In this document: positions 1 through 40,036 of the stretch, piece after piece
Numbering within the stretch: the first letter of the stretch is position 1
Layout of the letters: every line of letters starts with the position of its first letter
From: a virus
Taxonomy: Duplodnaviria > Heunggongvirae > Uroviricota > Caudoviricetes
Length of the DNA stretch: 64,000 nt
Virus record (IMG/VR): IMGVR_UViG_3300022660_000063
Span: 1 to 64,000 of that record
Direction: 5' to 3' (one strand)
The notes under the pieces: model-generated
What the model saw: only the letters and a program-made list of their open reading frames with translations
What the model was told of the DNA's origin: nothing
Database searches by the model: none
Position numbers and translations under genes: made by a program

Positions 1-22
1 GGAAGACAACTAAAAGTGTTAG

Positions 23-706
23 ACCAGATATAACCAACACTTAAAAGCATCTGAAATATATGCTCAAGAACATAGAAATCTATCATTACTTTATGAGGCA
101 ATTAATAAATATGGTAAGTGTAATTTCGGTGTCGAGACAATTGACACTGCCTCTACTATAGAAGAGTTAAATAAGAAAGAGATTTATTGAATAAAGTTTT
201 ATAGAGACTCATTTGGCAAAGAGTTTTGTTACAATATGGCATCGGGTGGAGATGGTGGGGATACAAACTCTGGCAAGACCCAATCAAAGGAATGGATAGC
301 TAAACGCTTGGCTAGTAGAGAAACTTATGATGTATCAGATGAAACTCGTGAGAAACAAAGACTAGCACATTTAAATCAAGTACCTTGGAATAAAGGCAAG
401 AAAATGTCAGCAGAGTATTGTGAGAAATGTAGAGAACGGAGTAAAGGTAACACTAATCATTTAGGGCATAAAGCAACTGAATTACAGAGAAAGCGTATGA
501 GTGACTCACATAAAGGTCAGATACCTTGGAATAAAGGTTTGAAGGGGTGTATTACCCAGTCAGAAGAAACAAAGAAAAAACGAGCAGATAAATTAAGAGG
601 GACTATTGGTATTAATGATGGCACCAAAAATACTCGAGTACCTAAAGAATACTTAGACAAGTATTTAAATGCAGGATGGTCGATTGGTTGATTAAAGAAA
701 AAATAG
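23..706 (+). CDS. GIY-YIG homing endonuclease, C-terminal part of catalytic domain plus NUMOD3-type DNA-binding repeats; 5' partial, possible frameshift near pos 20-30; two in-frame TGA (188-190, 689-691) read as Trp
   Basis: Translation gives '...LLYEAINKYGKCNFGVETIDTASTIEELNKKEIY[TGA=W]IKFYRDSFGKEFCYNMASGG', matching the I-TevI-like motif 'E.fWI..l....GYNi'. Two 'HxxSEETKxK / IPWNKG' NUMOD3-like repeats follow. ORF 236..691 continues through TGA to TAG at 704-706. Confidence 0.6.
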
Positions 707-1218
707 TATTTAATTCTAATCAAATAAAAGTTAAAGAGAGATTAGAAGAATCTTTAAGTAGCAGCAAACTAAATTTAAGTGAATACAATATAAAAGATAT
801 TTTGATAAATAACCCAGATTTATATAGAATATTATATGATGCTAGAATAGATAAGTATATGATAGGTAATTCATATGATATAATACATAGAGATTTAATA
901 ATAGATGCTTATAAGAAAGGTTATTATGAAAGTCAAAAAGATTTCATAGAAACTTTTGGCGCTATTGATAACTATATTGAAATAGGTTTAGATGGTTATT
1001 ATAATAAAGAGTTAGTAAATGAAACCATTGAACCTTTTATGTATCCGTTAGTATTTATTCCAAAAGGTAAAGAAGAAGAGATAGACATAGAAGCTGCTGA
1101 TGGTTATATAGAATTATTTGAATATGATTTTGGATATATCTTATCAAGAGAGAATGATTTTAGAGGAACAAGTTTGTATGATATATTAGTAGAACTAGTG
1201 TCAACTAAATACTTATAA
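676..1218 (+). CDS. hypothetical protein
   Basis: 180-aa ORF with no recognised motif; start uncertain, overlaps the homing-endonuclease 3' end. Confidence 0.4.
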   Translation: MVDWLIKEKIVFNSNQIKVKERLEESLSSSKLNLSEYNIKDILINNPDLYRILYDARIDKYMIGNSYDIIHRDLIIDAYKKGYYESQKDFIETFGAIDNYIEIGLDGYYNKELVNETIEPFMYPLVFIPKGKEEEIDIEAADGYIELFEYDFGYILSRENDFRGTSLYDILVELVSTKYL

Positions 1219-1249
1219 ACTGTATAATATATTAAGGAGATAAGAAAAG

Positions 1250-1969
1250 ATGATTAGTAATGATAAAAATTATATTAAAGAAATCGTAACAGATTTAGAA
1301 AAGCTTTCTAACAGATGTGATGAGGTAGATGTTAGAAAGAACAATGAAGCAGTTAGAGAAACAGTTGTTGAATTAAAACAAACTTTAAGAGAAAGTAAAA
1401 ATGGTGTAGGATTAGCTGCTCCACAAATTGGTAAAAAAGAAAGAATATTTGTAATCAATTTTAATGGGGATATTAGAGCATTTATCAACCCAATTATAAC
1501 TCAAACAAAAGGTATGAGTATTAATAGAGAGGGATGTTTAAGTTTACCAGGTAAAGAATATTTAGTGCCAAGATACAATCAAATTGAAGTTATGTACCAA
1601 ACTGCATTAGGTAAACCAGAGTCAAGAAGAATGGTTGGTATGGCTGCTTATGTATTCCAACATGAATTAGATCATTTAGAAGGCATCACACTTGCTGATA
1701 TTGGTCTTGAAGTTGGAGAAGATTTTGATAATGCTACTGATGAAGAAAGACAGCAAATTGTTGAGATGTATTTAGAATCTTTAGATTTGAAAAGAAAAGA
1801 ATTACAAAAAGAAATTGAAGAGGACCCAGAGTTAAAACAAACTGCAGATGCAATTGATTTTATGACTAAAGTACAAAAAGGTGAAGTTCAAGTAGAAGTA
1901 AATCAAGTAGATAATGAAACTCATGGACAAATTGCTGATAAAGTAGCTGAAGGGTTAAAAGAAGAATAA
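1250..1969 (+). CDS. def: peptide deformylase with acidic C-terminal extension
   Basis: Motifs GVGLAAPQIG, EGCLSLPG and QHELDHLEG (the three PDF signature motifs); RBS AAGGAG upstream. Confidence 0.85.
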   Translation: MISNDKNYIKEIVTDLEKLSNRCDEVDVRKNNEAVRETVVELKQTLRESKNGVGLAAPQIGKKERIFVINFNGDIRAFINPIITQTKGMSINREGCLSLPGKEYLVPRYNQIEVMYQTALGKPESRRMVGMAAYVFQHELDHLEGITLADIGLEVGEDFDNATDEERQQIVEMYLESLDLKRKELQKEIEEDPELKQTADAIDFMTKVQKGEVQVEVNQVDNETHGQIADKVAEGLKEE

Positions 1970-2502
1970 TGCAGTATTTTATTAGTGATACACATTTCTT
2001 CCATGAAAATGTAATTAGAATTTGTAATAGACCTTTTATAGATTTAGAAAGAATGCATGCGGTTCTAATACATAATTGGAATAAAAAAGTAAAACCTGAA
2101 GATGAGATTTATATATTAGGTGATTTATCTTACAAATGTCCAAATGGTGGTTATCAGCAGTTATTTACTTTAATTAAAAACTTAAATGGTAAGAAACATT
2201 TAATAATAGGCAATCATGATAGTAAATGGTTAAAAAGCTATAATAATCAATGTAAAGAAAAACTGTTTGAATCTATACAAATGTATAAAGATATCTATGA
2301 TGACAAAAATAGAAGAATTATAATGTTCCACTATCCTATAGAAGATTGGGATGGAATGTATAGAGGTAGTTATCATTTATATGGACATGTGCATAATGCA
2401 GATAATGGGTATAAAGTTATTCCAAATAGATTTAATGTTGGCGCAGATGTAATAGATTTTGAACCTAAAACACTTGATGAATTGATAGAAATAAACAAAT
2501 AA
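1969..2502 (+). CDS. calcineurin-like metallophosphoesterase (candidate RNA-end phosphatase/phosphodiesterase)
   Basis: DTHFFH, ILGDLSYK, IIGNHDSKW and YHLYGHVHN motifs (MPE blocks D-x-H, GD, GNHD, GHxH). Confidence 0.7.
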   Translation: MQYFISDTHFFHENVIRICNRPFIDLERMHAVLIHNWNKKVKPEDEIYILGDLSYKCPNGGYQQLFTLIKNLNGKKHLIIGNHDSKWLKSYNNQCKEKLFESIQMYKDIYDDKNRRIIMFHYPIEDWDGMYRGSYHLYGHVHNADNGYKVIPNRFNVGADVIDFEPKTLDELIEINK

Positions 2503-2535
2503 AATTGAAGTTTTAAATACTTCAATTTTTTATTT
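2501..2535 (+). terminator. intrinsic terminator hairpin
   Basis: aaaattgaag / cttcaatttt perfect 10-bp stem, 9-nt loop, followed by a T-run. Confidence 0.5.
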
Positions 2536-2538
2536 AAC

Positions 2539-2550
2539 TGCTAAATTTAT
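2539..2550 (+). promoter_or_regulatory. TGCTAAATTTAT motif (candidate late promoter element), copy 1
   Basis: One of 5 copies of this 12-mer; here 26 nt upstream of the ATG of a fiber-like gene. Confidence 0.4.
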
Positions 2551-2576
2551 TAGATGATAAATCAAGGAGACTTTAA

Positions 2577-3824
2577 ATGAATAATAGAATAAGATTAGCA
2601 AGAGGGACTTCAGATAAAAGAAAAGCAAGTGACTTAGAAATAGTCCCAGGTCAATTATTTTTCGAGACTGACACGAATTTATTATATTCAACTACCAACA
2701 ATAAAAACACCCCTCTTAAAAATGCTACAAGTATTTATAATAAAAATTTTATAGTATCTCTAGATAAACCTATACATCAAGATAATTTTGATATGTGGGC
2801 TAGTTTTAATTCTATAATAGATTCTTTTATAGGGGATTGGATTGGAGAAACAGTTGTATCTTCTACTAGAACAGATTTTATTAAATTTAAATATAACAAC
2901 GCAGGTCAAGTATATTTCAATATAAGTTGGAATGGATATTATGGTCATACTATTTTAGTAGATGATTCAAATCCTCCAATTTATTTTAAAACAGAAACTA
3001 ATAAGTTGATATTTCATTTTAAATTTACTCACCCACAGACTACCCTTACATATTATGGTAGATTAACTTTAAGTTCTGTTTCAGATAATGAGTCAATAAA
3101 TGCCTTATACGAATATGATAACCCAATAAATGGTTGGGAATCTATACTTAATTTAAATTTACTTAAACAAGAAGAAGATATAGAAGGCGATTTTGCGAAT
3201 TTAGATTATTCTAAACCAGTTGCATTAATGTATAAATACAATGAGGACTATGTAAATTATGTGCCAGAATTGGCAACTAATGTTGTAAATGCAATAAGGA
3301 ATAATGATGGAGAAAACAAAAGCTTAACTCTAAATAAAAATATATTGAATATAAATAATGCACCTTTAACTAACTATGATTATGACACAACAAACATACC
3401 TTATACAACATTATTATACACATTAGATTCTAGAGATGGTAATTATACCCCAGCAACTTTTTCTGATAATTTATACATAAAATTAGGTCAGTATGAGAGT
3501 CTTAATATTGAATTGATGATTAGAAGTACTTATACTTCTAATGGTGAATCTTTTACTTCCACGCATAAATTATCTTTTGATAATATAAATACTAGCACCT
3601 TTAGTTCAAGTTCTGTTTTAATACATAGTTACAATGAGGGAAATCAACTTATATCCTATATATTTACATGTAGATTATATGATTATGATTCAGCAACTGG
3701 CACTTATAGAATTGATTTTGGTCATGATGCTGGAACATTGATTTGGAAAAATACAAGTGCTTCATCAGACTACACAAATACAATTTCGATAGATTCAAGC
3801 TCAGTTAAAAGAGTATTTAAATAA
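2577..3824 (+). CDS. tail-fiber-like protein (conserved phage fiber N-terminal motif)
   Basis: N-terminus 'RIRLARGTSDKRKASDLEIVPGQLFFETDTNLLY' matches the widespread fiber N-terminal motif (RGT..w...n.vL..GElg.eTDT..l); remainder Asn/Thr/Ser-rich. Confidence 0.5.
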   Translation: MNNRIRLARGTSDKRKASDLEIVPGQLFFETDTNLLYSTTNNKNTPLKNATSIYNKNFIVSLDKPIHQDNFDMWASFNSIIDSFIGDWIGETVVSSTRTDFIKFKYNNAGQVYFNISWNGYYGHTILVDDSNPPIYFKTETNKLIFHFKFTHPQTTLTYYGRLTLSSVSDNESINALYEYDNPINGWESILNLNLLKQEEDIEGDFANLDYSKPVALMYKYNEDYVNYVPELATNVVNAIRNNDGENKSLTLNKNILNINNAPLTNYDYDTTNIPYTTLLYTLDSRDGNYTPATFSDNLYIKLGQYESLNIELMIRSTYTSNGESFTSTHKLSFDNINTSTFSSSSVLIHSYNEGNQLISYIFTCRLYDYDSATGTYRIDFGHDAGTLIWKNTSASSDYTNTISIDSSSVKRVFK

Positions 3825-4411
3825 TGAACAAGATACAATTAAATGGAATAATAAAAAATATAGAATATTCTCATTATATACAAGATATAGAATTTTATAA
3901 AGCTAATCTAATAACTAGAAGAGAAAATGGAAAAGAAGATATTATAAATTTAAAATTTAAAAAGTTTTCAAACCCATATAAAGAAAATCAAGAAATATCT
4001 ATTCTAGGTAATATTAGAACTTTTAATAGACAAGAAGAAGATAGAAATAAAGTAGAATTATTTGTATTTACTTATTTTGATGAAGCAGAAGAAAGTCCTA
4101 ATAATCTCGCATACATAGATGGTAGAATATGTAAAAAGAATAATTTAAGAAAAACATCATCTGGAAAAGATGTTTTAGATTTTATATTAGCAAACAATAT
4201 AGAAAATAATGGGCAAGTATTAAATGTATATTTACCTTGTGTTGCATGAGGGAAGTGTGCTAAGGCATTAAATAAATTAAATGTTGGGGACAAGATTTTA
4301 ATTCAAGGTCAATTACAATCGAGAGAGTATAAAAAGAGATTAACAGAAACTGATTATGAGATACGAGTTTGTCATGAACTGAGTGTAAATACTTTTGAAA
4401 CTTTACAGTAA
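3824..4411 (+). CDS. ssb: single-stranded DNA-binding protein (OB fold) with in-frame TGA=Trp at 4247-4249
   Basis: ORF 3824..4249 continues in frame through TGA: '...LPCVA[W]GKCAKALNKLNVGDKILIQGQLQSREYKKRLTETDYEIRV...'. This matches SSB 'CVtWrrqAEn....kKGs.v.v.GrLqtR.Y', whose Trp is invariant. Confidence 0.8.
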
Positions 4412-4517
4412 AAAGTTTACATAGGAGTTTACTATATTCTTTTTATTCTAAAAGGATTAATAAAATAAATATACTACTAAGTTTACATTAATAGTAAACT
4501 ATTAAGGATAATTTAAG

Positions 4518-4892
4518 ATGGAATTTAAATATTATTATGTACAAACATATTCAGATACACTAAATATAGAAAATTTGGGTAATTGTTTTATAGAGGCGTT
4601 CAGTGATAAAGGTGTTAAAGTATATTTATGGATAAGAACAGAATTAGGCTTTTCTAAAATACTTGAAGCTGGCCCTTATATAGATGATGGGAATATACCT
4701 TGCAAAGTTTGTGATATATCATTCTTTCAAACAGAGTTCTCCGAATCAAAGATAATAAAGAGAATTCAGAGTTTTTTGAATATGCCAAGGTATGCTATAA
4801 CTCAAGCATTTGATAAACAAGAAGAATATTCGGAAGAAGAGAAATTTCAAAAACTGTATAATATTATAAATTATATGGAGAAAGAAAACTAA
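4518..4892 (+). CDS. hypothetical protein
   Basis: 124-aa ORF, RBS present, no motif recognised. Confidence 0.4.
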   Translation: MEFKYYYVQTYSDTLNIENLGNCFIEAFSDKGVKVYLWIRTELGFSKILEAGPYIDDGNIPCKVCDISFFQTEFSESKIIKRIQSFLNMPRYAITQAFDKQEEYSEEEKFQKLYNIINYMEKEN

Positions 4893-5095
4893 TGCAAGAA
4901 GAAATAATAAGAGATTTTTATGGTAAAATTATAGGTTATATTCAAACTGATGATAAAGGAAATAAAGTCATAAGAGATTTTTATCGTAGGATACTTGGTA
5001 GATATGATAAAGCATCTAATGTTACAAGGGATTTTTATGGTAGGATAATTGCTAGAGGGGATCAAGCTTCTGGCCTATTGTATAGAGGAAAATAA
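4892..5095 (+). CDS. small protein with three 'RDFYG(K/R)II' repeats
   Basis: Triple internal repeat RDFYGKIIGYI / RDFYRRILGRY / RDFYGRIIARG. Confidence 0.4.
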   Translation: MQEEIIRDFYGKIIGYIQTDDKGNKVIRDFYRRILGRYDKASNVTRDFYGRIIARGDQASGLLYRGK

Positions 5096-5586
5096 TGAGA
5101 TTTTTAAGAGAAAATTCAAACATAGCTTTATATCAAGAAATTTTAAATTTATTTGATAATCAAATAAGCTTTGGTTATTTTGGTGGGGCTGCTTATATAC
5201 TGAAGGATGGTGAATATTTAAATATAGAGGAAGGATCTCACATGTGAGTAGATGATTTTCTTTATGATAATAATTTAATAGAGACTTCACCATTCGAACT
5301 AGACAAACTTATTCTTATAGACGATTTTAATTGCATAAGAGTAAATGATGGAGTATTAACAGATTCAGATCCTTACATAGAATTACCTACGAAATTACCT
5401 ACTTATTCTCAACTAGATACGTTAGAAAATTGGCTGACTAAATATCCTATTATATGAATAGGTATTAGAGGAGATAGAAAAGCTGGTAAGTATTTTAATA
5501 CAAAAGATATTTTACCAGAAGATATTATAAAAAAGATAAAAAGATATTATAGTTCTGGTATATTATACGAGAATTATAAGATATAA
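5095..5586 (+). CDS. hypothetical protein (163 aa), visible only when TGA is read as Trp (two in-frame TGA at 5245 and 5455)
   Basis: ATG at 5095 overlaps the previous stop (TAATG); continuous reading frame to TAA 5584-5586 with RBS-like GAGG upstream. In standard code this is a gene-free gap in an otherwise gapless region. Confidence 0.5.
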
Positions 5587-5610
5587 ATTCAAAGAAAAGG
5601 AGATATAGTA

Positions 5611-5668
5611 GTTCTTATGAACATTTAAAACGTTTATAAGAACTATTTTATTCACTGTATAAATCATA
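5611..5668 (+). promoter_or_regulatory. hairpin plus extended -10 (TGTATAAAT) upstream of nrdD
   Basis: Inverted repeat agttcttat...ataagaact followed by cactgTGtATAAAT. Confidence 0.35.
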
Positions 5669-5680
5669 AGGAGGATATCA

Positions 5681-8600
5681 ATGCAAATTATAAAACGAGA
5701 TGGATCAAAGCAAAAATTTGATGAGTATAAAATATGGAAAGCAATATTAGGTTGTTTTGAAGATTGTTGTCCTAAAGGTGAGTATGTTAATGATGGTGTG
5801 ATAACAGAATTAACAAATAAAGTAACACAACAATTAGATAAAAGAAAAAATTATACTGTAGAACAAATTCAAGATATTGTAGAACTAACTTTGATGGAAG
5901 CTAATAAATATGAACAAGCAAAAGCATACATAGAATATAGACAATTACATAAACTAGCTAGAAATAGTTATACTGAACTAATGAATAAAGTTAAAGCTAA
6001 ACTAGAAGCAAAGAATGTAGAAAATTCAAATGCAAACCTAGATGAAAATACTTTCAGTGGAAGAGAGAAAGAAGCATTTGGAACTATATTAAAAGAATAT
6101 GCACTTAATAATTTAGTATCAGAAACTACTAGAAATAATCATATTAATAATGAAATTTATATACATGATTTAGATGCTTATGCAAGTGGTATGCATAATT
6201 GTTTATCAATTCCTTTAGATGATTTATTAGCAAAAGGATTTAAAGTTAAACAGACAGATATAAGACCTGCTGGAACAGTAAATACAGCGATGCAATTGTC
6301 AGCTGTTATAATGCAATTACAAAGTTTATGTCAATTTGGTGGTGTATCATATACTCACTTTGATTGGTCAATGGTCCCTTATGTAAGAAAGAGTTTTTAT
6401 AAACATTATAAAGAAGGATTATATTGGTTCGGTAATGAAAAGTATTTAGAAGGAATTACAAAAGAAACTTCTATAATTGACGAAAAATATAAACTAAATC
6501 AAGATGCTTATGAATATGCTATGAGACAAACTGAAAAAGAAACACATCAAGCAGTTGAAGCATTATATCACAATTTAAATTCATTACAATCAAGAAGTGG
6601 ACAACAACTACCATTTAGCTCTATAAATTATGGAACTTGCACTTTACCAGAAGGTAGAATGATAACAGAAGAATTGTTAAATGTATCTATTGAAGGTTTA
6701 GGAAAATATCATAGAACAAGTATATTCCCTTGTGGTATATTCCAGTGCATGAAAGGTGTTAACAGAAAACCGGGCGATCCAAATTATGACTTATTTAAGT
6801 TAGCATTAAAATCAACTTCAAAGAGATTGTATCCAAATTATGCCTCAGTTGATTGGAGTGGTAATGCAGGTTACGATGTAAATGATCCAAAAACATATTT
6901 TAGTACAATGGGTGCTTTGAGTGGTCATGAACATCTAACAGTTAAAATAGGAAATGAAGAACCTATTGACTTATCTATCAGAGACTTATTTGATTATTGT
7001 AAAACAGATGATTTACAAAATTATAAGAAAACACAGATTTGGTATAACAGAGAAAAATTAAATGAAGAGCCTTTAGGTAGACATTATCAAGAAAAATCTG
7101 GATTACCTAATCTACCAGGTGTTTATTCAATAACTTATTTACCAGAAGATGTCACATATATTGGAAGTTCAAGTTCTATTTCTAGAAGATGCGCTGAGCA
7201 TAAATGTGCTATAGGCAAAACAGGTGGGATTGATGCAGGAATAAATTTTGGGGATATTGATACAGCTAATTATGAATTTAAAGTATTAGAAATAACTGAA
7301 GATTATAAAGAAGCTGAAAACCTTTATATTCAAAAGAATGCAAATATAAATCCTAGAGGAACAGATAAGAAATATTATAAGTTAATTACTCAAAAATCTA
7401 GGCATAGAGTATATGATAGACCTGTATTTAAAGTTGATTTGAGTAAAAAACAAGAATTGATTGATTTATCTGAATTTGATATTAAAGTATTAGATAGAGA
7501 TAATAAATGGGTAAAGATCAAACATATCTTTAAAAATGATAAATTAAATACTCCGTATATGATGCATATCTATTACAAAGAATACGATAAAGAATATTGT
7601 TTGTCTTGTACTGAAGATCACCCTCTATGGACAGGAGATAAATTTACAAGAGCAGATCAATTAAAAATAGGTGATAAACTTTATAGAGCTGATAATTTAG
7701 AGTTAGAAATAACTGATATATGTTGGCATTGGGAAGCAGTTGATAGCTACGATATAGGTACTGAAACTGGTTCATTTATAGGTTCAGATATTATAATGCA
7801 TAACTGTAGAACTGCAAATGGTTGGGATATTAATGGTTTAAAACAACAAAAAGATGGTAGAGGAAATATTGCACCTACTACTATTATATTACCAACAATA
7901 GCAATGAAATCTAAAGAATGTACAAGAGCTTCAGAAGAATCAGATATAGATGTATTTATGAGATTACTTGAATGTAAAATAAATGAAGCAAAAGACTCTT
8001 TGATAGAAAGATTTGAGCATATCTGTAGCCAATCACCTAAATCAGCCCCATTTATGTATGAAAATAACACAATGGCTGGTTATATTCCAGAAGAAGGAAT
8101 TAGGAGTGCTTTAAAACATGGAACATTAGTTATAGGTCAATTAGGTCTTGCTGAATGTTTACAAATATTAATTGGAAAAGACCATACTACAAAAGAAGGT
8201 ATGGAACTTGCTAAAAAGATAGAACAATTATTTAAAGATAAATGTGCTTATTTTAAAGAACAATATAAATTAAATTTTGGTGTTTATTATACTCCTGCAG
8301 AATCTTTATGTAAAACTGCTATGACTAAATTTAAAGAAAAATATGGTATTATTCCAAATATATCTGATAGAAAATATTTTACTAATTCAATGCATGTTCC
8401 AGTATACCATAACATAAATGCTTTTGATAAAATAGATATTGAAAGTCAATTAACAGGTTATTCTTCAGCTGGGTGTATTACTTATGTAGAATTAGATTCA
8501 TCTTCAATTCATAATATAGAAGCTATTGAAAAATTAGTTAATTATGCTATGGATAAAGATATACCTTACTTTGCTATAAACGTACCAAATGATGTTTGTA

Positions 8601-8776
8601 TGGACTGCGGACATCAAGAAGAAATGAATGATAAATGTCCAGAATGTGGTTCAGATAATATTGAAAGATTAAGAAGAGTTACAGGATATGTTTCTACAGA
8701 TTATCATAATTTTAATGAAGGTAAGATAGCGGAAGTAGAAGATAGAGTCAAACACACAGGAGTTCCTATTGAATAA
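5681..8776 (+). CDS. nrdD: anaerobic (class III) ribonucleoside-triphosphate reductase, interrupted by an in-frame intein
   Basis: 1031 aa (about 300 aa longer than typical). C-terminal glycyl-radical motif 'RRVTGYVSTDY' and Cys4 Zn site 'CMDCGH...CPECG'; internal intein/endonuclease segment (see next feature). Confidence 0.9.
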   Translation: MQIIKRDGSKQKFDEYKIWKAILGCFEDCCPKGEYVNDGVITELTNKVTQQLDKRKNYTVEQIQDIVELTLMEANKYEQAKAYIEYRQLHKLARNSYTELMNKVKAKLEAKNVENSNANLDENTFSGREKEAFGTILKEYALNNLVSETTRNNHINNEIYIHDLDAYASGMHNCLSIPLDDLLAKGFKVKQTDIRPAGTVNTAMQLSAVIMQLQSLCQFGGVSYTHFDWSMVPYVRKSFYKHYKEGLYWFGNEKYLEGITKETSIIDEKYKLNQDAYEYAMRQTEKETHQAVEALYHNLNSLQSRSGQQLPFSSINYGTCTLPEGRMITEELLNVSIEGLGKYHRTSIFPCGIFQCMKGVNRKPGDPNYDLFKLALKSTSKRLYPNYASVDWSGNAGYDVNDPKTYFSTMGALSGHEHLTVKIGNEEPIDLSIRDLFDYCKTDDLQNYKKTQIWYNREKLNEEPLGRHYQEKSGLPNLPGVYSITYLPEDVTYIGSSSSISRRCAEHKCAIGKTGGIDAGINFGDIDTANYEFKVLEITEDYKEAENLYIQKNANINPRGTDKKYYKLITQKSRHRVYDRPVFKVDLSKKQELIDLSEFDIKVLDRDNKWVKIKHIFKNDKLNTPYMMHIYYKEYDKEYCLSCTEDHPLWTGDKFTRADQLKIGDKLYRADNLELEITDICWHWEAVDSYDIGTETGSFIGSDIIMHNCRTANGWDINGLKQQKDGRGNIAPTTIILPTIAMKSKECTRASEESDIDVFMRLLECKINEAKDSLIERFEHICSQSPKSAPFMYENNTMAGYIPEEGIRSALKHGTLVIGQLGLAECLQILIGKDHTTKEGMELAKKIEQLFKDKCAYFKEQYKLNFGVYYTPAESLCKTAMTKFKEKYGIIPNISDRKYFTNSMHVPVYHNINAFDKIDIESQLTGYSSAGCITYVELDSSSIHNIEAIEKLVNYAMDKDIPYFAINVPNDVCMDCGHQEEMNDKCPECGSDNIERLRRVTGYVSTDYHNFNEGKIAEVEDRVKHTGVPIE
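6914..7804 (+). mobile_element. intein (about 297 aa) inside NrdD carrying a GIY-YIG endonuclease domain
   Basis: Block A-like 'ALSGHEHLTVKIGNEEPIDLSIRDL' and block B-like 'TEDHPLWTGDKFTRADQLKIGDKL'. Block F/G 'SYDIGTETGSFIGSDIIMHN' followed by Cys+1 'CRTANGW'. In between lies 'GVYSITYLPEDVTYIGSSSSISRRCAEHK' (GIY-YIG). N-terminal boundary is approximate (Ala1 at 6914 or Ser1 at 6920). Confidence 0.6.
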
Positions 8777-8813
8777 AATATTAAATTGATTTATTAAATC
8801 AATCTTAGCAGGA

Positions 8814-9398
8814 ATGTTTATAGGGATAGGCTGTTTAGCCTATCTATCATCTCCTGATAAAATAGTGGGTGCTTTCTTATTTACTGTAGGATTATTTGTT
8901 ATACTTACTTTTAAATTAAATTTATTCACAGGTAAGATTTGTTATGTTATAGAAAAGAAAAATTATTTAGAAGTAGTTATAACTTTACTTGGTAATTTTA
9001 TAGGAACATTATTACTAGCTTTAATGTGTAGAGCTACACGGTTAATTAATCTAATAGAGTATGCAAATGCAATATGTGAAATCAAATTAAGTGATTCCTA
9101 TATAAGTTTATTTATACTCGGAATTTTATGTAACATATTAATTTATATAGCGGTAGAAGGATACAATAAGTTCAAAGATATAAGAGGTATTTTATCTCTT
9201 TTCTTTGGAGTTATTATCTTTGTAGTTATAGGATTAGAACACTGTATTGCAGACATGTTTTACTTTAATTTTACTTTTATATATTCTTGAGAGGTATTAT
9301 TAAGATTATTAATTATAGTTTTAGGAAACGGTATAGGTGGAATAAGTATAAGATATTTATTTAGGAGACGTAATGAAATTTTTAAAGGAAGAGATTAA
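8814..9398 (+). CDS. formate/nitrite transporter (FNT, FocA/NirC-like) channel, compact 6-TM form; in-frame TGA=Trp at 9288-9290
   Basis: FNT signatures 'GAFLFTVGLFVILTFKLNLFTG', 'GILCNILIYIAV', 'IGLEHCIADMFYF' (FEHsIANMF) and, after the TGA, 'LGNGIGG' (LGNIVGG). Start uncertain: in-frame upstream sequence '..NWFIKSILAG' continues the TM1 pattern. Confidence 0.75.
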
Positions 9399-9945
9399 TA
9401 ATTTATACCACGCATATCATGGATCTAATGCAGAATTCGACAGATTTGAGCAGCAATTCATTGGAGCTCATGCATTAGGGCATGGATTTGGCTTTTACTT
9501 TACAGACGAAATTAATCAAGCTAAAAGTTATGGTGATTATGTTATAGAAGCAGATTTATTAATTAGAAAACCATTTTCAGATGACAGTATAACTATAGCT
9601 AAAAATCAAGTTAAAAATTATATTAGAAAATATGTAGATCCTATTGGAAAAGATTATTTATCTAACTATGGTTGGTATGAAGATGAAGGTTATGAAAATG
9701 TTTTAAATAATTGTGTAGAATCTTTATTTGCATATAACAATAGTGATAATGATATTATTAGTGAAATATTGTTTAATGTACAAAATAAATATACTGATGA
9801 AGCTTATGATGCTATATTTGAAATATTTGGAAAAGATGGAATTATATATCAAGGCTTTTCTGGCTGGCAAGGCGAACCTTTAACAAATTATTTAGTTTAT
9901 AGCAATTCACAAATATTAAATAAGAAAAAAATTAAGGTGAGATAA
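9373..9945 (+). CDS. PARP-like ADP-ribosyltransferase domain protein (H-Y-x class; catalytic Glu apparently replaced)
   Basis: 'LYHAYHGSNAEF....GHGFGFYFTDEINQAKSYG....TNYLVYSNSQI' parallels the PARP catalytic signature (HGS ... G.GiYFA ... KS.gY ... [E]YiVY) seen in ORF 21008..22177, but with Asn in place of Glu. Confidence 0.5.
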   Translation: MKFLKEEINNLYHAYHGSNAEFDRFEQQFIGAHALGHGFGFYFTDEINQAKSYGDYVIEADLLIRKPFSDDSITIAKNQVKNYIRKYVDPIGKDYLSNYGWYEDEGYENVLNNCVESLFAYNNSDNDIISEILFNVQNKYTDEAYDAIFEIFGKDGIIYQGFSGWQGEPLTNYLVYSNSQILNKKKIKVR

Positions 9946-9946
9946 T

Positions 9947-10399
9947 ATGAGATATCAACAAATTTTAGATTGCTCTATTGCAGATGGTGAAGGTGTCAGA
10001 GTTGTTTTATTTGTTACAGGCTGTTCACACTACTGCAAAGGCTGTCACAATCCAGAATGTTGGGACGAGACACGAGGTAAACTATTTACAGAAGAAACCA
10101 AACAAAAATTATTTGAATTATTAGATAGAGATTACATAGATGGGATTACATTTAGTGGTGGGGATCCATTTTATCCAGGAAACAGAGATGAAATTGTAGC
10201 TCTAACAAAAGAGATAAAAGAAAAATTTCCTAGTAAAACTATTTGGTTATATACTGGTTATTTGTATGAAGACATGAAAAACTTTGGTGTATTAAATTAC
10301 ATAGACGTTTTAGTGGATGGGAAATTTGAACAAGATAAAAGAGATATTACATTACCATTTAGAGGTTCCAGCAATCAAAGAATAATAAGATTAAATTAA
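9947..10399 (+). CDS. nrdG: anaerobic RNR activating protein (radical SAM)
   Basis: 'GEGVRVVLFVTGCSHYCKGCHNPECWD' (CxxxCxxC) and 'FSGGDPFY'; immediately follows nrdD. Confidence 0.85.
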   Translation: MRYQQILDCSIADGEGVRVVLFVTGCSHYCKGCHNPECWDETRGKLFTEETKQKLFELLDRDYIDGITFSGGDPFYPGNRDEIVALTKEIKEKFPSKTIWLYTGYLYEDMKNFGVLNYIDVLVDGKFEQDKRDITLPFRGSSNQRIIRLN

Positions 10400-10408
10400 T
10401 GTATTAAA

Positions 10409-10443
10409 AGATAGAGAAATCAGTTTACTTCTCTATCTTTTTA
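10409..10443 (+). terminator. intrinsic terminator after nrdG (stem agatagagaa/ttctctatct plus T-run)
   Basis: Perfect 10-bp inverted repeat with the -35 TTTACT in the loop, followed by TTTTT. Confidence 0.55.
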
Positions 10444-10452
10444 TTATATAAT
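10424..10452 (+). promoter_or_regulatory. sigma-70-like promoter P1 (TTTACT, 17 bp, TATAAT)
   Basis: -35 tttact 10424-10429, 17-nt spacer, -10 tataat 10447-10452. Confidence 0.6.
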
Positions 10453-10475
10453 ATATGATATAAAGAGGTGTTAAT

Positions 10476-10808
10476 ATGTTTATAGAAAAAGTAGAATTTA
10501 AACAAGATATAGCTTATGTATATGTAGCAGGATGTAGTAATAATTGCAAGCAATGCAGAAAGTCACCGCCAAAAGATAATAAGAATTTTAAGTATTTAGA
10601 TATTAAAAATACATTAATATCACAAATAAATAATAATGATATCTGTCAAGTTATAATAACAGGTAATGACCCTTTATATTGCGGTAATAAAAAAGATTTA
10701 CAAGATTTTGTGAGATCAATTTCTGTATTTAAGATCTCTATTATAAGCAAATATAATACTAACTGGTTTAACAATGAGAAACATATTGAGATTGTTTCAA
10801 ATGAATAA
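10476..10808 (+). CDS. short NrdG-like radical-SAM paralog (C-terminally truncated or degenerate)
   Basis: 'VAGCSNNCKQC' CxxxCxxC and 'ITGNDPLY' (compare nrdG FSGGDPFY); only 110 aa. Confidence 0.45.
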   Translation: MFIEKVEFKQDIAYVYVAGCSNNCKQCRKSPPKDNKNFKYLDIKNTLISQINNNDICQVIITGNDPLYCGNKKDLQDFVRSISVFKISIISKYNTNWFNNEKHIEIVSNE

Positions 10809-10882
10809 TTTTATATAAATATATTCAAAATCGGTTTGCTTTTTGTTAATGATAGTATATAATTATAATATAGGAGGTTAAC

Positions 10883-11260
10883 GTGATAAAATATAATATG
10901 AATCCAAAAGGCATAAAAGCTGGTGACTGTGTTATTCGTGCGATAGCTTATTCTCTAGATCAAACCTGGGAAGAAACCTATGATGATCTCTGCAAACTTG
11001 GAATGAAGATGAAAAGAATGCCGAATGAAAAACAAGTGTATGAAAAATACTTAGAACAAAAAGGTTGGGTAAAGCATAAGCAACCTAGAACATCATTTAA
11101 TACAAAATATACTGTATTTGAATTTATAGAGTATCAGATGGAGAGAAAAGCTATTATTTCAGTCGCTAATCATTTGACATGCGTCGATAATTTTGAATTA
11201 GTAGATACATGGGATTGTTCTAGAAAATCAATTGGTAATTATTGGACAAAGGAGGACTAA
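10883..11260 (+). CDS. hypothetical protein (GTG start)
   Basis: AGGAGG 5 nt upstream of GTG; 125 aa, no recognised motif. Confidence 0.4.
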   Translation: MIKYNMNPKGIKAGDCVIRAIAYSLDQTWEETYDDLCKLGMKMKRMPNEKQVYEKYLEQKGWVKHKQPRTSFNTKYTVFEFIEYQMERKAIISVANHLTCVDNFELVDTWDCSRKSIGNYWTKED

Positions 11261-11689
11261 ATGAAAAAACCTAGAGTGCTAGATGCTTATTTAAAAGAAT
11301 ATCAAAGAAAATTAAAAGAAGCTAGAGCTAATAAAAAAAGAAATAAAGATAAGCTATTTACTTTAACCGAAACTTCAATACAAACTATATTGCAAAATAA
11401 TATAAAAATTAAATATCCAGAGATTTCATTTAAAGTAGATAAATCTATATCCACTAATAGTTATTACATAATGTTCTTTTATGGTGATAGATATGTAACA
11501 ACAAGAATTAGTGATCATGAATCAAGAGTAGGGGCATTAGGAATCGTAGTTACACCTGATACAACTAAGAAAGAAGTTATTCAAGTTTTAGAGCAGCGCG
11601 TCATTGATTTAAAGTATAAATATAAAGCACATTTATTTAATAAATTTAAAGAAATAGAAAAGGAAAGAATATGAAAAAACAATACATAA
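11261..11689 (+). CDS. hypothetical basic protein; annotated TGA (11672) readable as Trp, extending 5 codons
   Basis: RBS AAGGAGG; ORF ends at TGA, then continues W-K-N-N-T-TAA. Confidence 0.4.
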
Positions 11690-11831
11690 TATCTTTTATA
11701 GATATTAATACAGGTTTACTAAGTTTTAATAAAAAATATGAATCCAACAGTAAGAAAGAAGCTTGTATTAAATTTAAACAAGATTATCCATATTGCCAAA
11801 TTATTACTGTATCTAAAATAGAGGTGAGTAA

Positions 11832-12134
11832 ATGAAATTAAAAGATTTAGAAAGACTTCTTAGAGGTAGCGTGAAATTTAAATTGCAAGCTAGAGTAGAA
11901 GATAGAATAGAAACATTAGATGAGGTATTAATTTATGAAATTAAATATTTGCCTTCTGGATTATTAAAAAGAGAAGTATTACAGATAGATTTAGATACTA
12001 ATGTGATTTTCTTGGATAAAATAAATGAAGAGGAGGCAGTCAAGAGATATGTAGAAATTGATTCTTTGCAATCTGTAGATGATTATAAAGAAAGTTTTTT
12101 AAATATTAAATATGAAGATTCTAATTTAATTTAA
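11832..12134 (+). CDS. hypothetical protein
   Basis: 100-aa ORF with RBS. Confidence 0.35.
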   Translation: MKLKDLERLLRGSVKFKLQARVEDRIETLDEVLIYEIKYLPSGLLKREVLQIDLDTNVIFLDKINEEEAVKRYVEIDSLQSVDDYKESFLNIKYEDSNLI

Positions 12135-12148
12135 GGAGATAAGAGAAA

Positions 12149-13195
12149 ATGAAAATTATATTCATTATTTTACCATTAATTTTATTAGCAGTAGGAATAA
12201 CTTGGGCTTGTTTTTCTGCTAAGAATTTGAAAGGACAAAAAGAAGTTGATACTCAAGTTGCTGAATATATTAGAGGAAAAAAGACAGTTACATATATTAA
12301 GAAACCAAAACTAATTCAATTGATTGCATCAAGCATACTTGCACTTGTAAGTTTCTTTGTGCTCATCATAGTACCAGGTAGCTATCATCAGATTGAAGCA
12401 GGACAAGTAGCTGTAGTAAAGATTTGGGGTGAAGCTAAAGAAGTTAGAACTCCAGGAATGCATTTTGATTTTTGGTTAAGTCATAAGTACGAAATTTATG
12501 ATACAAAAGTTCAACAGTCGACTATTCAAACACAGGCATATTCTAGTGATGGACAAACGATGGATATTGAGTTAGTAATTCAATTTCAAATTCAACAAGA
12601 AAATGCAATGAAAATAGCAACTAATTATGGTGGTCTTGAAATGCTACAATCAAGAATTGAAACAGTTGCTAATGAGAAAATGAAAAGTGTGTTATCTCAA
12701 AAATCCGCAATGAAAATAATTGAAACAAGAGCAACTGTATCACCAGATGTAGAAGAATCGATTAGAGCCGCAATTACAAACGACTATTATGTTAATATCA
12801 CAAGTGTTGTATTAACAGATATTAGTTTTAGTGATGCTTTTGAAAAAACCGTAGAAGATAAGATGATTGCAGAACAAGAAAAAATCAAAGCAGAGTATGA
12901 AAAAGAAAAAGCAATTATTCAAGCAGAACAACAACTAGAGGTTGCTAAAAAAGAAGCTGAAGCATTATTAGAAAAAGCAAAGAAAGAAGCTGAATCAGAG
13001 TTAGTACTTGCACAAGCAGAGGCAGAAGCTCTTGAAATAATGAATGCAACTTGGAATACTTTAACAGCAGAAGTTAAAGAAGCAATTTTAACTCAAATGG
13101 CGATAGACAAATGGGATGGTAAGTTACCTGAAACATTAGTAGGGGATGAATTCCTTAAAGAATTGTTAGGTTATATTGGAGGTTCAAATGCTTAG
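12149..13195 (+). CDS. SPFH/band-7 (HflC/stomatin-like) membrane protein
   Basis: N-terminal TM, 'GQVAVVKIWGEAKEVRTPGMHF' SPFH core, and a long Ala/Glu/Lys coiled-coil tail typical of HflK/C. Confidence 0.7.
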   Translation: MKIIFIILPLILLAVGITWACFSAKNLKGQKEVDTQVAEYIRGKKTVTYIKKPKLIQLIASSILALVSFFVLIIVPGSYHQIEAGQVAVVKIWGEAKEVRTPGMHFDFWLSHKYEIYDTKVQQSTIQTQAYSSDGQTMDIELVIQFQIQQENAMKIATNYGGLEMLQSRIETVANEKMKSVLSQKSAMKIIETRATVSPDVEESIRAAITNDYYVNITSVVLTDISFSDAFEKTVEDKMIAEQEKIKAEYEKEKAIIQAEQQLEVAKKEAEALLEKAKKEAESELVLAQAEAEALEIMNATWNTLTAEVKEAILTQMAIDKWDGKLPETLVGDEFLKELLGYIGGSNA

Positions 13196-20853: not shown

Positions 20854-21009
20854 TGGTAGTAGTAAAAGAATCTTATAATATAAATAATGAATTAGAACTT
20901 AATATATGTTCTACTTTTCTGTATATTTTATATAAAGATAAGATAAACAAAGGTTTAGCAAATATCACATTTGAAAATAATATTTTATATTACAGGGAGA
21001 TTGTATAAT
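20854..21009 (+). CDS. possible small ORF (51 aa)
   Basis: AAGGAG RBS then ATG; fills the gap between P4 and the PARP gene. Confidence 0.3.
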
Positions 21010-22177
21010 GAATAAAAAGTTAATATGTGTTACACCTAACAATAATAATAAGTTTTACAATATGACAGATCTCGGTGACGGTACTTTCGAAGTTGAATAT
21101 GGAAGAGTTGGAGCTACAAGTGTAAAAACTTCTTACTCTATGTCTCAATGGGATAAAAAATACAATGAAAAAATAAAGAAAGGGTATGTTGATATAAGTG
21201 AATCTTTATCTCAAGACATTAAAAAAGCTTCTTTAAAGATAGATGATAAAGATGTTAAAGATTTAATTTCATTTCTTATGAGTTGTGCAAAACAGTCTAT
21301 CAAATCAAATTATGAAGTATCACTGGACTCAATTTCAGATATTCAAATAAATAAAGTCCAAGAAATATTAGACGAGTTGAATGACTTGGATTTAACAAAA
21401 TTACCTTATAATATTATAAATAACTATCTTCAAAAGGTGTATACAACTATACCAAGAAAAATGTATGATACAAGAGCTTTTTTCTTAAAACCTAATTACA
21501 CTAAACAAGAATTTATAGAATTATTACAAGAAGAACAAAATAAACTCAACACACTTAAATCACAAGTTAATTTGAATACCCAATCTAATAAAATTGAAGA
21601 TATAACATTAGAAACACTTGGGTTTGATTGTAGATTAGCAACGCAAGAAGAAAGAGAATTTATAGCTGCCAATACTGATTTTAGAGTTAATAATCAAAAA
21701 ATATTTAGAGTTACAAATCATGAAACTGAGAAAGTATTTAATCCAGATAATCTTAAAACAAGACTTTTATATCATGGAAGTAGAAATGAGAATTATCTAA
21801 GCATTATGCAAACAGGGTTAAAAATTAGACCTAAGGGTGTTGTCTTAACAGGTTCGATGTTTGGTAATGGTATATATGCAGCTAATAAAGCAAGAAAAAG
21901 CATTGGTTATACATCATTAAGAGGTAGTTATTGGGCATCTGGCTCAAGTAATAAAGCTTATCTAACTATATTTGAATTTGCTACAGGTCAAGAATGGCGA
22001 ATTTTAGATAATGAAAGTTATAAATCTTGGATGGGCAGGATTACTGAAGATCAAGTTAAATCACAAAAATGTAATTCAGTATTTGCTAGAGGTGGTGCTG
22101 ATTTAAGAAACGATGAATATATTGTATATAATAGTAATCAATGTACTATTAGATATATAATTGAAATAAATAATTAA
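21008..22177 (+). CDS. poly(ADP-ribose) polymerase-like protein (WGR domain plus PARP catalytic domain, H-Y-E triad)
   Basis: N-terminal WGR-like 'FYNMTDLGDGTFEVEYGRVGATSVKTSY...KIKKGY'. C-terminal 'LLYHGSRNENYLSIMQTGLKIRP', 'GSMFGNGIYAANKARKSIGY', 'NDEYIVYNSNQ'. Confidence 0.8.
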   Translation: MNKKLICVTPNNNNKFYNMTDLGDGTFEVEYGRVGATSVKTSYSMSQWDKKYNEKIKKGYVDISESLSQDIKKASLKIDDKDVKDLISFLMSCAKQSIKSNYEVSLDSISDIQINKVQEILDELNDLDLTKLPYNIINNYLQKVYTTIPRKMYDTRAFFLKPNYTKQEFIELLQEEQNKLNTLKSQVNLNTQSNKIEDITLETLGFDCRLATQEEREFIAANTDFRVNNQKIFRVTNHETEKVFNPDNLKTRLLYHGSRNENYLSIMQTGLKIRPKGVVLTGSMFGNGIYAANKARKSIGYTSLRGSYWASGSSNKAYLTIFEFATGQEWRILDNESYKSWMGRITEDQVKSQKCNSVFARGGADLRNDEYIVYNSNQCTIRYIIEINN

Positions 22178-38566: not shown

Positions 38567-40036
38567 ATGAATGCAATAGCTAGAATATATGGTAATAGTA
38601 AACATCCAGATATAAGTGGAGAAGTTAAATTTACCCAGTTGGACGATAAAGTAAAAATTACAGCTGATATAAAAGGATTACCAAAATCAACTTTCTTAGG
38701 ATTTCATATACATGCTAAAGGTAATTGCTCAGGAGATGAGCAAGATGAATTTAAAGATGTAGGTAAGCATTACAATCCAGATAGAAAAAGACATCCAAAT
38801 CATAAAGGTGATTTATCTTCTATAAATACATCAACCGGAAAAGTTCATATAGAACAAGAAACAGATAGATTTACAGTCGATGAAATCATTGGAAAAGCAA
38901 TTATATTGCATTCACAGAGAGATGATTTTACAAGTCAACCAGCAGGTGATGCTGGAGATAAGATAGCATGTGGAGTGATAAGAGAAATGAAATTATTAGA
39001 AAATGAATCAAAAAATCCTTTAAAAGATGCAGAAGAATTTGCTAAAAAGCATCAAAAAGGATTAGGAGCATTTGTTAAGTTGAACGCTGGTAATGTAGAA
39101 AAAGGGATAGCAACATTTAATAAAAATATGGGATCTAGTGAAACAAGTACATCTAGCACAGCTATGAGTGAAAGCATAGAATATAAAGGAATTGAATTAA
39201 CTTCAAATAATAAAGAAGAATCAAAAGAAGATATAATAGATAATTTATCAGGCATTGTTGATGATATAGTAAGGGCTGGTTATTTTAACTATTCTGATAT
39301 AATTAGAGTAGAAGAAGTTATAGATGAAAAAACCTTTGATAACTCGCATTTAATTATAACAACGAAAGATGAAGGACCTAAATTATTTACATATGTTGGT
39401 GGTAGGCTGTACAACTACGAACCAAGAGAATATATTAATAGGGGAGTTGAATCAAAGATGAATATCAGAGAAGAATTAAATAAGATTGATATGGATACTT
39501 GCGAAACCGATTTAGTTAATATGTATGAAGCTTGTAAGTTAACAAATGAGGATAAAAAACAAATAGTCGCATTGTTGCAAGAAAATAAAGTAGAAGATCT
39601 AAATAAATTTTTAGAATCTAAATTATTTGAAGATGAACTTGATCCTGAAACATTAGATGAAAATGATTATTCTGAAGAAGATTTAAAAATGTTTGCTAAT
39701 ATGATTAGAGTAAATAGTCCGCGTTTTAGAGGTGATCCATATCCTCCATTCGCAGAAACAAAGATAAATGAATCTAATATCCCAGATAATATGAGATTTA
39801 AAATGTGGGATAGTGAAGTTACAAGTGATGATGTTATCGAATTTACTTGGATAACTCAAGGAGAGTTTACAACTGAAGATTCAGAAATGTTTATAAAAGA
39901 AATAAAAAGAGCTATTAATGCTTTAATAGACAGTTCTAGATTCGATCAACCATTTACTCTTGCCCTAGAAGTAAGATCAAGATCAGGATATGAAAATGGG
40001 CATTTAGTGATAGATTTAGATTTTAACCGAGAATAA
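38567..40036 (+). CDS. Cu/Zn superoxide dismutase (SodC) domain fused to a 350-aa C-terminal region of unknown function; no signal peptide
   Basis: 'GFHIHAKGNC', 'GKHYNP', 'RKRHPNHKGDL', 'AIILHSQRDD' and 'GDAGDKIACGVI'. These reproduce every Cu and Zn ligand position of SOD1/SodC (H46, H48, H63, H71, H80, D83, H120); the R143 equivalent is Lys. Confidence 0.8.
   Translation: MNAIARIYGNSKHPDISGEVKFTQLDDKVKITADIKGLPKSTFLGFHIHAKGNCSGDEQDEFKDVGKHYNPDRKRHPNHKGDLSSINTSTGKVHIEQETDRFTVDEIIGKAIILHSQRDDFTSQPAGDAGDKIACGVIREMKLLENESKNPLKDAEEFAKKHQKGLGAFVKLNAGNVEKGIATFNKNMGSSETSTSSTAMSESIEYKGIELTSNNKEESKEDIIDNLSGIVDDIVRAGYFNYSDIIRVEEVIDEKTFDNSHLIITTKDEGPKLFTYVGGRLYNYEPREYINRGVESKMNIREELNKIDMDTCETDLVNMYEACKLTNEDKKQIVALLQENKVEDLNKFLESKLFEDELDPETLDENDYSEEDLKMFANMIRVNSPRFRGDPYPPFAETKINESNIPDNMRFKMWDSEVTSDDVIEFTWITQGEFTTEDSEMFIKEIKRAINALIDSSRFDQPFTLALEVRSRSGYENGHLVIDLDFNRE

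Follow-up and report, generated by a model that had tools for sequence, protein, structure and literature searches.

The window analysed here comprises 64,000 nucleotides of the IMG/VR virus record IMGVR_UViG_3300022660_000063 (Caudoviricetes) and is part of the genome (about 154 kb, 27% G+C) of a large gut or rumen phage. It is AT-rich (26-30% G+C) and carries + strand large-phage genes at high density, including those for a peptide deformylase, an SSB-like protein, a CCA-adding enzyme, a DNA ligase, a PARP-like protein and a ThyX-like protein. It also holds an operon for the anaerobic synthesis of deoxynucleoside triphosphates (dNTPs), in which an intein-interrupted nrdD, encoding a class III ribonucleotide reductase (RNR), is followed by a gene for a compact channel of the FNT family, an ART-PolyVal (ADP-ribosyltransferase-like) gene, nrdG, and a short NrdG-like gene. 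The channel gene, which contains two in-frame TGA codons that the phage most probably decodes, is the subject of this report, together with the role that it may play in supplying formate to the phage RNR.

The channel gene and its product

The FNT gene directly follows nrdD, as the original prediction had stated, and is tightly packed into the operon. Its TTG start, in the frame TTG-AAT-AAA-ATA-TTA-AAT-TGA-TTT, overlaps the end of nrdD (stop at 8774-8776) by 8 nt, the last 26 nt of the FNT gene are shared with the ART-PolyVal gene, and nrdG starts 1 nt after the ART-PolyVal gene ends. Read with the standard code (code 11), the open reading frame (ORF) extends from 8814 to 9290 and encodes 158 residues, which match positions 35-206 of the 240 positions of the PF01226 profile (87.4 bits, E 1.3e-24). 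With TGA read as tryptophan, the 209-residue product matches positions 18-233 at 110.2 bits (E 1.4e-31), above the Pfam cutoff of 34.6, in agreement with the family assignment first proposed. That proposal placed the start at the ATG at 8814 and described a compact protein of about 195 residues. The compactness stands, whereas the length is obtained only by an unmentioned read-through of the TGA at 9288-9290. A second TGA lies upstream of that ATG, the gene starts at the TTG, and the ATG itself has no Shine-Dalgarno-like site comparable to the AGGAG that precedes the TTG (Table 1). Its placement just upstream of nrdG was likewise inexact, since the ART-PolyVal gene sits between the two.

Both TGA codons fall on positions where relatives have sense codons. 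Codon 7 is TGG in the relatives L002, L148, and L149, while codon 174 is TGG in L149, TGT (Cys) in L148, and a Phe codon in L002. Downstream of the second TGA the frame encodes EVLLRLLIIVLGNGIGG..., corresponding to the conserved GNxxGG helix of transmembrane (TM) segment 6, and its 35 codons, which include the "LGNGIGG" motif of TM6, remain open up to the TAA at 9396-9398. The database protein P0001, identical to the 209-residue product, was translated with code 4 by a gene caller, from short contigs. Both TGAs are identical in six independent assemblies (L003-L005 and L154-L156), by which an assembly error as their origin is ruled out. The ratio of nonsynonymous to synonymous substitution rates (dN/dS) of the gene is 0.18 against L148, with which it shares 91% nucleotide identity. 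The gene is intact only if both UGA codons are decoded, and these comparisons strongly imply that they are.

A profile built from 32 members of the subfamily to which the protein belongs matches V. cholerae FocA (VcFocA, 1e-21), C. difficile HSC (1e-19), LCIA, NirC, E. coli FocA, and PfFNT. The AlphaFold model (pLDDT 94.9, pTM 0.90) predicts the FNT fold, with six TM helices of which TM2 (omega loop) is broken at residues 48-52 and TM5 (S loop) at residues 155-158. Foldseek aligns this model to the solved FNTs HSC, FocA, NirC, and PfFNT with template-modelling scores of 0.78-0.87, and LCIA (bicarbonate), HSC (hydrosulfide), and PfFNT (lactate) are among its best structural matches. The subfamily comprises proteins of about 205 residues and is uncharacterised. 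Its protein clusters number more than 1100 and its genome loci more than 578, and its members all come from Clostridia-type gut and rumen bacteria.

The motif IGLEHCIADMF, pointed out in the original prediction, is present in the protein, and the central histidine and constriction residues are both kept. H158 (GLEHCIADMF) and T54 (NLFTGK) are invariant in the 32 members and align with H208 and T90 of VcFocA (FocA H209 and T91). The residues F38, F151, L42, and L52, also invariant, align with VcFocA F74, F201, L78, and L88, being the equivalents of the hydrophobic constrictions F75/F202 and L79/L89 of FocA. Passages of PMC9380403 name nine FocA pore residues (T91, H209, K156, N172, E208, S210, N213, N262, and D88), six of which are kept in the phage protein (T91/T54, H209/H158, K156/K106, N172/N122, E208/E157, and N262/N187). 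According to the same passages, the Cys found at the S210 position is a listed common variant, the Asp at the N213 position corresponds to the functional FocA N213D, and the Asn at the D88 position occurs where 85% of FNTs have an acidic residue (PMC9380403). The pore residues are under purifying selection. The alignment starts at about FocA residue 30, with TM1 at phage residue 3, such that the N-terminal cytoplasmic helix of FocA, about 30 residues long, is absent. In FocA this helix is the PflB-interaction domain, mediating PflB-gated export.

Table 1. Coordinates of the features of the anaerobic dNTP operon and of the SSB-like gene in the window.
Feature	Position	Strand	Evidence or remark
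SSB-like gene with in-frame TGA (4247-4249)	3824-4411	+	Pfam SSB domain (4.9e-15) spans the TGA
nrdD, class III RNR with ATP-cone, intein-interrupted	5681-8776	+	Pfam NRDD 8.5e-145, ATP-cone, Gly_radical
Intein, 297 aa (NrdD residues 412-708), GIY-YIG domain	6914-7804	+	GIY-YIG 2e-5 at aa 480-555; weak HINT match at 623-690
Shine-Dalgarno-like AGGAG	8758-8762	+	6 nt 5' of the FNT TTG start at 8769; read directly
FNT-family channel gene, compact, 209 codons	8769-9398	+	TGA=W translation identical to database protein P0001
In-frame TGA, FNT codon 7, in TM1	8787-8789	+	Aligned with Trp in the five closest homolog clusters
In-frame TGA, FNT codon 174, start of TM6	9288-9290	+	Trp in P0005, P0006, and P0008
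ART-PolyVal (ADP-ribosyltransferase-like), 190 aa	9373-9945	+	PF18760 4.4e-11; between FNT and nrdG
nrdG, radical-SAM activase of NrdD	9947-10399	+	TIGR02491 194.7 bits (cutoff 126.1); Fer4_12 8e-50
NrdG-derived mini-protein, 110 aa	10476-10808	+	Fer4_12 5.7e-8; CxxxCxxC and G(N/D)DP kept

UGA decoding in the phage clade

The FNT gene is one of several in this phage that continue past a TGA. In the window, a TGA "stop" ends six ORFs with a length of 80 codons or more, and long open extensions follow four of them; the two without such an extension, ending at 689-691 and 11672-11674, each have a TAA five codons later, and TGA may never be the sole terminator in this phage. The TGA of the SSB-like gene (codon 142) occupies the same conserved Trp codon, "CVA-TGA-GK", in the window and in the related contigs L002, L064, and L066, and its 54-codon continuation is conserved. 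The ART gene of L002 contains two in-frame TGAs, one of which is aligned with a TGG in the ART gene of the window.

Three further genes of the window show the same feature. An ORF of 167 codons at 5086-5586, whose product has no assigned family, contains in-frame TGAs at 5245 and 5455; at 41965-43689, a 491-residue protein is followed by a TGA at 43438 and a ferritin/rubrerythrin-like extension; and at 45058-45927, a 142-residue protein is followed by a TGA at 45484 and an extension of 147 codons. Like the SSB-like gene, all three are cut short under standard-code annotation.

Recoding of UGA is sparse, since the window contains more than 200 TGG codons for Trp against about 7 sense TGA codons (10 and 0, respectively, in nrdD), and TGG stays the main Trp codon. 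The same counts rule out a Mycoplasma-like use of code 4 throughout the genome, in which most Trp codons would be TGA.

No tRNA was found in a search of the window, L002, L064, L066, and L012. Leftward extension of the window led to L154-L156, which represent the same phage of about 154 kb, with at least 99.94% identity over window positions 1-11219. They carry 12 ordinary tRNAs and, in addition, a tRNA of 94-97 nt with the anticodon UCA, located at L154:5205-5301, about 4.1 kb upstream of window position 1 and outside the window. This tRNA(UCA), detected by Rfam at 38 bits, resembles tRNA-Trp in its A1-U72 pair, its G73, and its anticodon loop, CUUCAAA. Its variable region forms an extra hairpin of 5-6 bp, the loop (CUCCAAA) and closing pairs of which copy the anticodon arm of tRNA-Trp(CCA), and which may act as a decoy anticodon arm for tryptophanyl-tRNA synthetase (TrpRS). 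The double-hairpin tRNA(UCA) is present in 13 IMG/VR phage contigs (L157-L169), mostly adjoining a normal tRNA-Trp, and covariation is seen in the outer pairs of its extra stem. ARAGORN wrongly labels it as tRNA-SeC, and no description of it was found in the open-access literature.

Two of these contigs encode in addition a tRNA with the anticodon CUA (L164:138-214 and L166:3898-3974; tRNA-Pyl according to ARAGORN), and their phages may suppress both UGA and UAG. A tmRNA is encoded in several of the tRNA(UCA) contigs (L159, L161, L167, and L168).

Taken together, the alignment of the FNT TGAs with Trp, their presence in six assemblies, the dN/dS of 0.18, the TGAs of the SSB-like and ART genes, and the tRNA(UCA) argue that the phage decodes UGA and that its FNT gene is intact. 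The homolog alignments and the tRNA features A1-U72 and G73 point to tryptophan as the inserted residue, and the phage clade as a whole decodes UGA, very probably as Trp, by means of the phage tRNA(UCA). Standard-code annotation by the Joint Genome Institute (JGI) shortens the FNT protein to 158 residues; sparse TGA recoding can thus hide auxiliary genes. As a speculation, dependence on UGA decoding may time or limit production of the channel, with the two UGA codons, one of them already at codon 7, making its synthesis require the phage suppressor tRNA.

Genomic context of the channel gene and its neighbours

The reductase encoded next to the channel reaches 477 bits against TIGR02487 (cutoff 326). 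Once freed of its intein, it finds its best solved relatives in the formate-requiring NrdD of P. copri (8p23, 4e-124) and of phage T4 (5e-73), and matches the thioredoxin-type NrdD of T. maritima at only 7e-10. Its Cys loop reads M-G-C, and it has an Asn, in "GRGN", at β-strand 6, where the thioredoxin-type enzyme has a third Cys; both STMG|CRT and GRGN align with the MGC and Asn435 of the P. copri enzyme. By these signatures the window NrdD is the formate-dependent type (NrdD1). The Asn signature at β-strand 6 recurs in every FNT-linked phage NrdD in which the motif is readable (20 of the 27 FNT-linked loci searched).

Phage context was drawn from 51 IMG/VR loci encoding this FNT, and bacterial context from the best 80 of more than 578 genome loci. 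The linkage of FNT with nrdDG that the original prediction had suggested surveying is recurrent, nrdD and/or nrdG standing beside the channel gene in 23 of the 51 phage loci. The order is nrdD-nrdG-FNT in 20 of these, with one locus each having FNT before nrdG, FNT before nrdD, and a divergent arrangement. The linked loci span at least 14 deep FNT lineages on a rough neighbour-joining tree, with FNT identity to the window protein going down to about 28%. In L002, a contig of 136 kb, the order is nrdD(intein)-FNT-nrdG, and in L012 it is nrdD-dut-FNT-nrdG, their FNT proteins being 69% and 63% identical, respectively, to that of the window.

Among the best 80 bacterial loci, adjacency to nrdDG occurs in only 2. 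In 19, homologs with about 50% identity lie in operons of the type fhs-fchA/folD-FNT-ECF S component (energy-coupling factor)-folC, in which fhs encodes formate-tetrahydrofolate ligase, sometimes with SHMT, and the other bacterial contexts are heterogeneous. A scan of the neighbours of the phage loci lacking nrdDG and of the bacterial loci lacking fhs brought up no other recurrent partner, the genes being either unrelated or of the ordinary phage replication kind. The only "bacterial" nrdD-nrdG-FNT loci, L085 and L091, are on short contigs (6.4 and 22 kb) of metagenome-assembled genomes (MAGs), one from a Christensenella sp. and one from a Clostridia bacterium. Either these operons are genuinely bacterial, which would make them candidate donors, or phage sequence was binned into the MAGs.

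GenBank phages gave eight weak FNT-like matches, and the five inspected (Phass-1, H3, H7, H9, and H10; not H5, H6, or H8) have no nrdDG nearby. In the TAG-recoded phage Phass-1 (L001, OQ749652), the FNT-like gene (7968-8648, 30% identity) and a FolD-like gene about 3 kb away (11639-12496) are both annotated as hypothetical. Among sequenced phages, Thomasclavelia TR-TP1 and TR-TP2 come nearest, but their match to the window is confined to 600 nt of nrdD.

Beyond the channel, the operon differs among relatives in several of its parts. The ART-PolyVal gene varies in place and size, lying upstream of nrdD in L002 (4963-5547) and between nrdD and nrdG, in a version of 354 residues, in L064 (8365-9429); the PARP-like gene of the window (21008-22177) is separate from it. 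The intein of the window nrdD is bounded by ...FSTMG|ALSGHEH...IIMHN|CRTANG, so that it separates STMG from the catalytic Cys (CRT). This codon boundary is a hot spot for mobile elements, with a GIY-YIG intein in the window and L002, an insertion with an HNH endonuclease ORF in L064 (6719-7267), and an ORF-less, intron-like insert in L066 (about 8278-8560) and in the IMG/VR phages L015, L033, and L038.

The 110-residue NrdG-like protein had been regarded as a degenerate NrdG paralog. Its presence, its CxxxCxxC motif, and the loss of the C-terminal part (about 40 residues) are all borne out, whereas degeneracy is not, its length and Cys motif being conserved in homologs of 107-110 residues with 92, 80, and 55% identity, which lie directly after nrdG in related phage contigs of about 142-150 kb. 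It shares 27% identity with the phage's own NrdG over 70 residues, with GNDP in place of GGDP, and scores 31.4 bits against TIGR02491, below the cutoff of 126.1, aligning to positions 20-91 of 154 only. The gene is absent from L002. An exhaustive HMMER search with the protein returned one cluster of true relatives and low-complexity noise, with none outside the phage clade, and its low-confidence structure model (pLDDT 65.5) had no significant Foldseek match. By these comparisons it is a conserved, clade-restricted derivative of NrdG rather than a decaying copy, and a role as an Fe-S accessory or as a regulator of activation is one possibility.

Scans of positions 4800-11400 for promoters (47 promoter-like sites against 48.9 expected) and terminators (2 terminator-like sites against 0.9 expected) were uninformative. 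Elsewhere in the window, at 38567-40036, a protein of 489 residues begins with a Cu/Zn superoxide dismutase domain (1.4e-31), notable given the dependence of the phage on an oxygen-sensitive glycyl-radical reductase.

A proposed formate supply and competing readings

We consider it fairly probable that the FNT channel of the nrdDG module supplies formate to the phage class III RNR, an idea that appears well supported by the comparison. The channel, inserted in the host membrane, would admit external formate or formic acid into the infected cell, where it would feed the formate-type NrdD, one formate being oxidised to CO2 per dNTP made. This one-to-one chemistry of class III RNR is attributed to Mulliez et al. 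(1995). Passages of PMC8914244 and PMC12559229 attribute to the central His of FocA its ability to take up formate, and uptake by the phage channel is suggested by the retention of this residue. The bacterial fhs-folD-folC operons likewise point to formate as the substrate and to uptake as the direction. As an estimate of the demand, 50-100 copies of a 154-kb genome would require about 1.5-3 x 10^7 dNTPs, equivalent to 25-50 mM formate in a cell of 1 fL.

Several points weigh against this reading. The substrate of an FNT channel (formate, nitrite, hydrosulfide, lactate, or bicarbonate) is not readable from sequence, and such channels conduct both ways, so that import is a probable direction of flux. 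The protein does not reach the NCBIfam equivalog cutoffs for the fnt subfamily (72.9 against 232 bits), FocA (TIGR04060, 63 against 290), NirC (23 against 293), or FocB (19 against 499), and by these scores is a compact FNT-family member, not an equivalog of FocA, NirC, or FocB. Roughly one in two phage FNT loci lacks nrdDG within 6 kb. L064 and L066, which are the large relatives closest to the window phage, carry nrdD-nrdG and the NrdG-like gene and no FNT, and eight IMG/VR loci matched by NrdG also lack it, which makes the channel dispensable. The long extra arm of the tRNA(UCA) also leaves serine as an alternative to tryptophan as the residue probably inserted at UGA.

Formate could also be imported for one-carbon folate metabolism, with host Fhs forming 10-formyltetrahydrofolate, which would yield methylenetetrahydrofolate for the phage ThyX or serve formyl-Met or purine synthesis. 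The fhs-folD-folC operon is the only recurrent bacterial context of this FNT, the phage clade carries ThyX-like, FolD, or SHMT genes along with a peptide deformylase, and in Phass-1 a distance of 3 kb separates the FNT-like and FolD-like genes. We nevertheless regard this use as unlikely, since the phage FNT adjoins nrdD and nrdG rather than thyX or folD, the folD-carrying relatives L064 and L066 are precisely those without FNT, and no phage fhs gene was seen.

Somewhat more doubtful is the idea that the channel conducts some other small anion or weak acid, such as nitrite, hydrosulfide, lactate, or bicarbonate, or that the protein perturbs the membrane for the sake of depolarisation or superinfection exclusion, its position next to nrdDG then reflecting hitch-hiking. 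The presence of HSC, PfFNT, and LCIA among the best structural matches and the scores below the FocA equivalog cutoffs are compatible with it, as is the interpretation of the only published viral FNT as a nitrite transporter (PMC8115048). In the phage and bacterial loci examined, however, no enzymes of nitrite, sulfite, or lactate metabolism adjoin FNT, the adjacency to nrdDG persists through changes in gene order and FNT divergence to about 28% identity, and the pore residues are under purifying selection.

A pseudogene, or a truncated product in this strain arising from TGA terminating as in the standard code, is very unlikely. It would fit the 158-residue ORF called by JGI, which lacks TM6 and part of TM1, the TGG or TGT used at the TGA codons by relatives with about 89% and 68% protein identity, the excess of TGG over in-frame TGA (more than 200 against about 7), and the viability of relatives without FNT. 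Against it, both TGAs fall on Trp-aligned codons, the frame after each is open and conserved, and dN/dS is low (0.18). The SSB-like TGA lies at one codon in four phages with a Pfam domain spanning it, four of the six TGA "stops" of the window have long domain-bearing extensions, and the tRNA(UCA) belongs to the same genome.

Export of formate, or dissipation of a formate/pH gradient to protect the infected cell, is the least credible of these readings, as both conserved neighbourhoods, Fhs and NrdD, consume formate and the FocA helix commonly associated with PflB-gated export is absent from the phage protein. Passages of PMC8914244 and PMC9380403 do describe FocA as mainly exporting formate in fermentation and FNT channels as bidirectional, while the His linked to uptake in FocA (PMC8914244 and PMC12559229) is invariant in the subfamily.

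The formate-supply reading can be set beside several known systems. With FocA of E. coli and V. cholerae, the phage protein shares the Pfam family, the predicted fold, the Thr/His and Lys-Glu pairs, the equivalents of Asn172 and Asn262, and the Phe/Leu constrictions, but it is shorter (209 against 285 residues), has shorter loops, Asp for N213, Asn for D88, and no N-terminal helix, and its neighbour is NrdD instead of PflB. It is closer to the compact FNTs of Clostridia (Lachnospiraceae, Oscillospiraceae, and Christensenellaceae), with 45-54% identity, a length of about 205 residues, and the motifs EHC[IV]ADMFYF and LFTGK[VIL]CY; unlike the phage copies, those of bacteria lie beside fhs/folD/folC or unrelated genes, and the phage copies are far more divergent among themselves.

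A viral parallel in arrangement is the focA-nirA pair of a cyanophage from an oxygen-minimum zone (Gazitua et al. 2021, PMC8115048), in which a phage FNT also stands beside an enzyme consuming the transported anion. There, a full-length, cyanobacterial-type FNT, read as a nitrite transporter, is paired with nitrite reductase, whereas here a compact, Clostridia-type FNT is paired with a formate-dependent RNR; the earlier suggestion that FNT channels were undescribed as phage auxiliary genes does not hold (PMC8115048). In the open-access literature we found no report of FNT or FocA in phage nrdDG modules or of the function of the compact subfamily. The nrdD-nrdG pair of phage T4 resembles that of the window in its formate-type NrdD and small NrdG activase, while the window module adds the FNT, the ART-like protein, the NrdG-derived mini-protein, and the nrdD intein. 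We know of no channel gene in the T4 module.

As for the code, the window phage fits the model of the gut phages of Firmicutes in which TGA is recoded (code 4; Borges et al., bioRxiv 10.1101/2021.08.26.457843), being large and low in G+C, with TGA rare as a stop, a tRNA(UCA), and in-frame TGAs in a subset of genes. The window phage differs in that its recoding is very sparse (about 7 sense TGA codons in 64 kb) and affects the SSB-like, FNT, and other non-lysis genes, and in that its suppressor tRNA has the extra hairpin copying the tRNA-Trp anticodon arm. Neither the channel family nor this class of auxiliary gene is new in itself; what is new is their recurrent pairing with nrdDG, to which UGA-dependent translation is added here. 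More tentatively, it is conceivable that large phages infecting anaerobes have acquired a minimal FNT on repeated occasions to feed formate specifically to their RNR, which in this phage would also be gated by UGA decoding via the tRNA(UCA), its decoy arm possibly recruiting TrpRS.

Class III RNR is a common nucleotide-metabolism gene of phages in anoxic habitats, and to our knowledge no one has yet considered how an infected cell provides the stoichiometric amounts of formate that the enzyme consumes. For the large, uncharacterised subfamily of compact Clostridia FNTs, the comparison suggests formate uptake as a likely physiological role, and its members offer a minimal FNT scaffold usable for structure-function work. 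If the formate-supply reading is true, the supply of reductant, as well as the RNR enzyme, would be a phage-controlled step of dNTP synthesis. The presence of the channel gene in nrdDG operons of many unrelated gut and rumen phages would then suggest that the replication of phages under anaerobic conditions is constrained by the formate available, and would connect their productivity with a metabolite that is central to cross-feeding in the gut and rumen.

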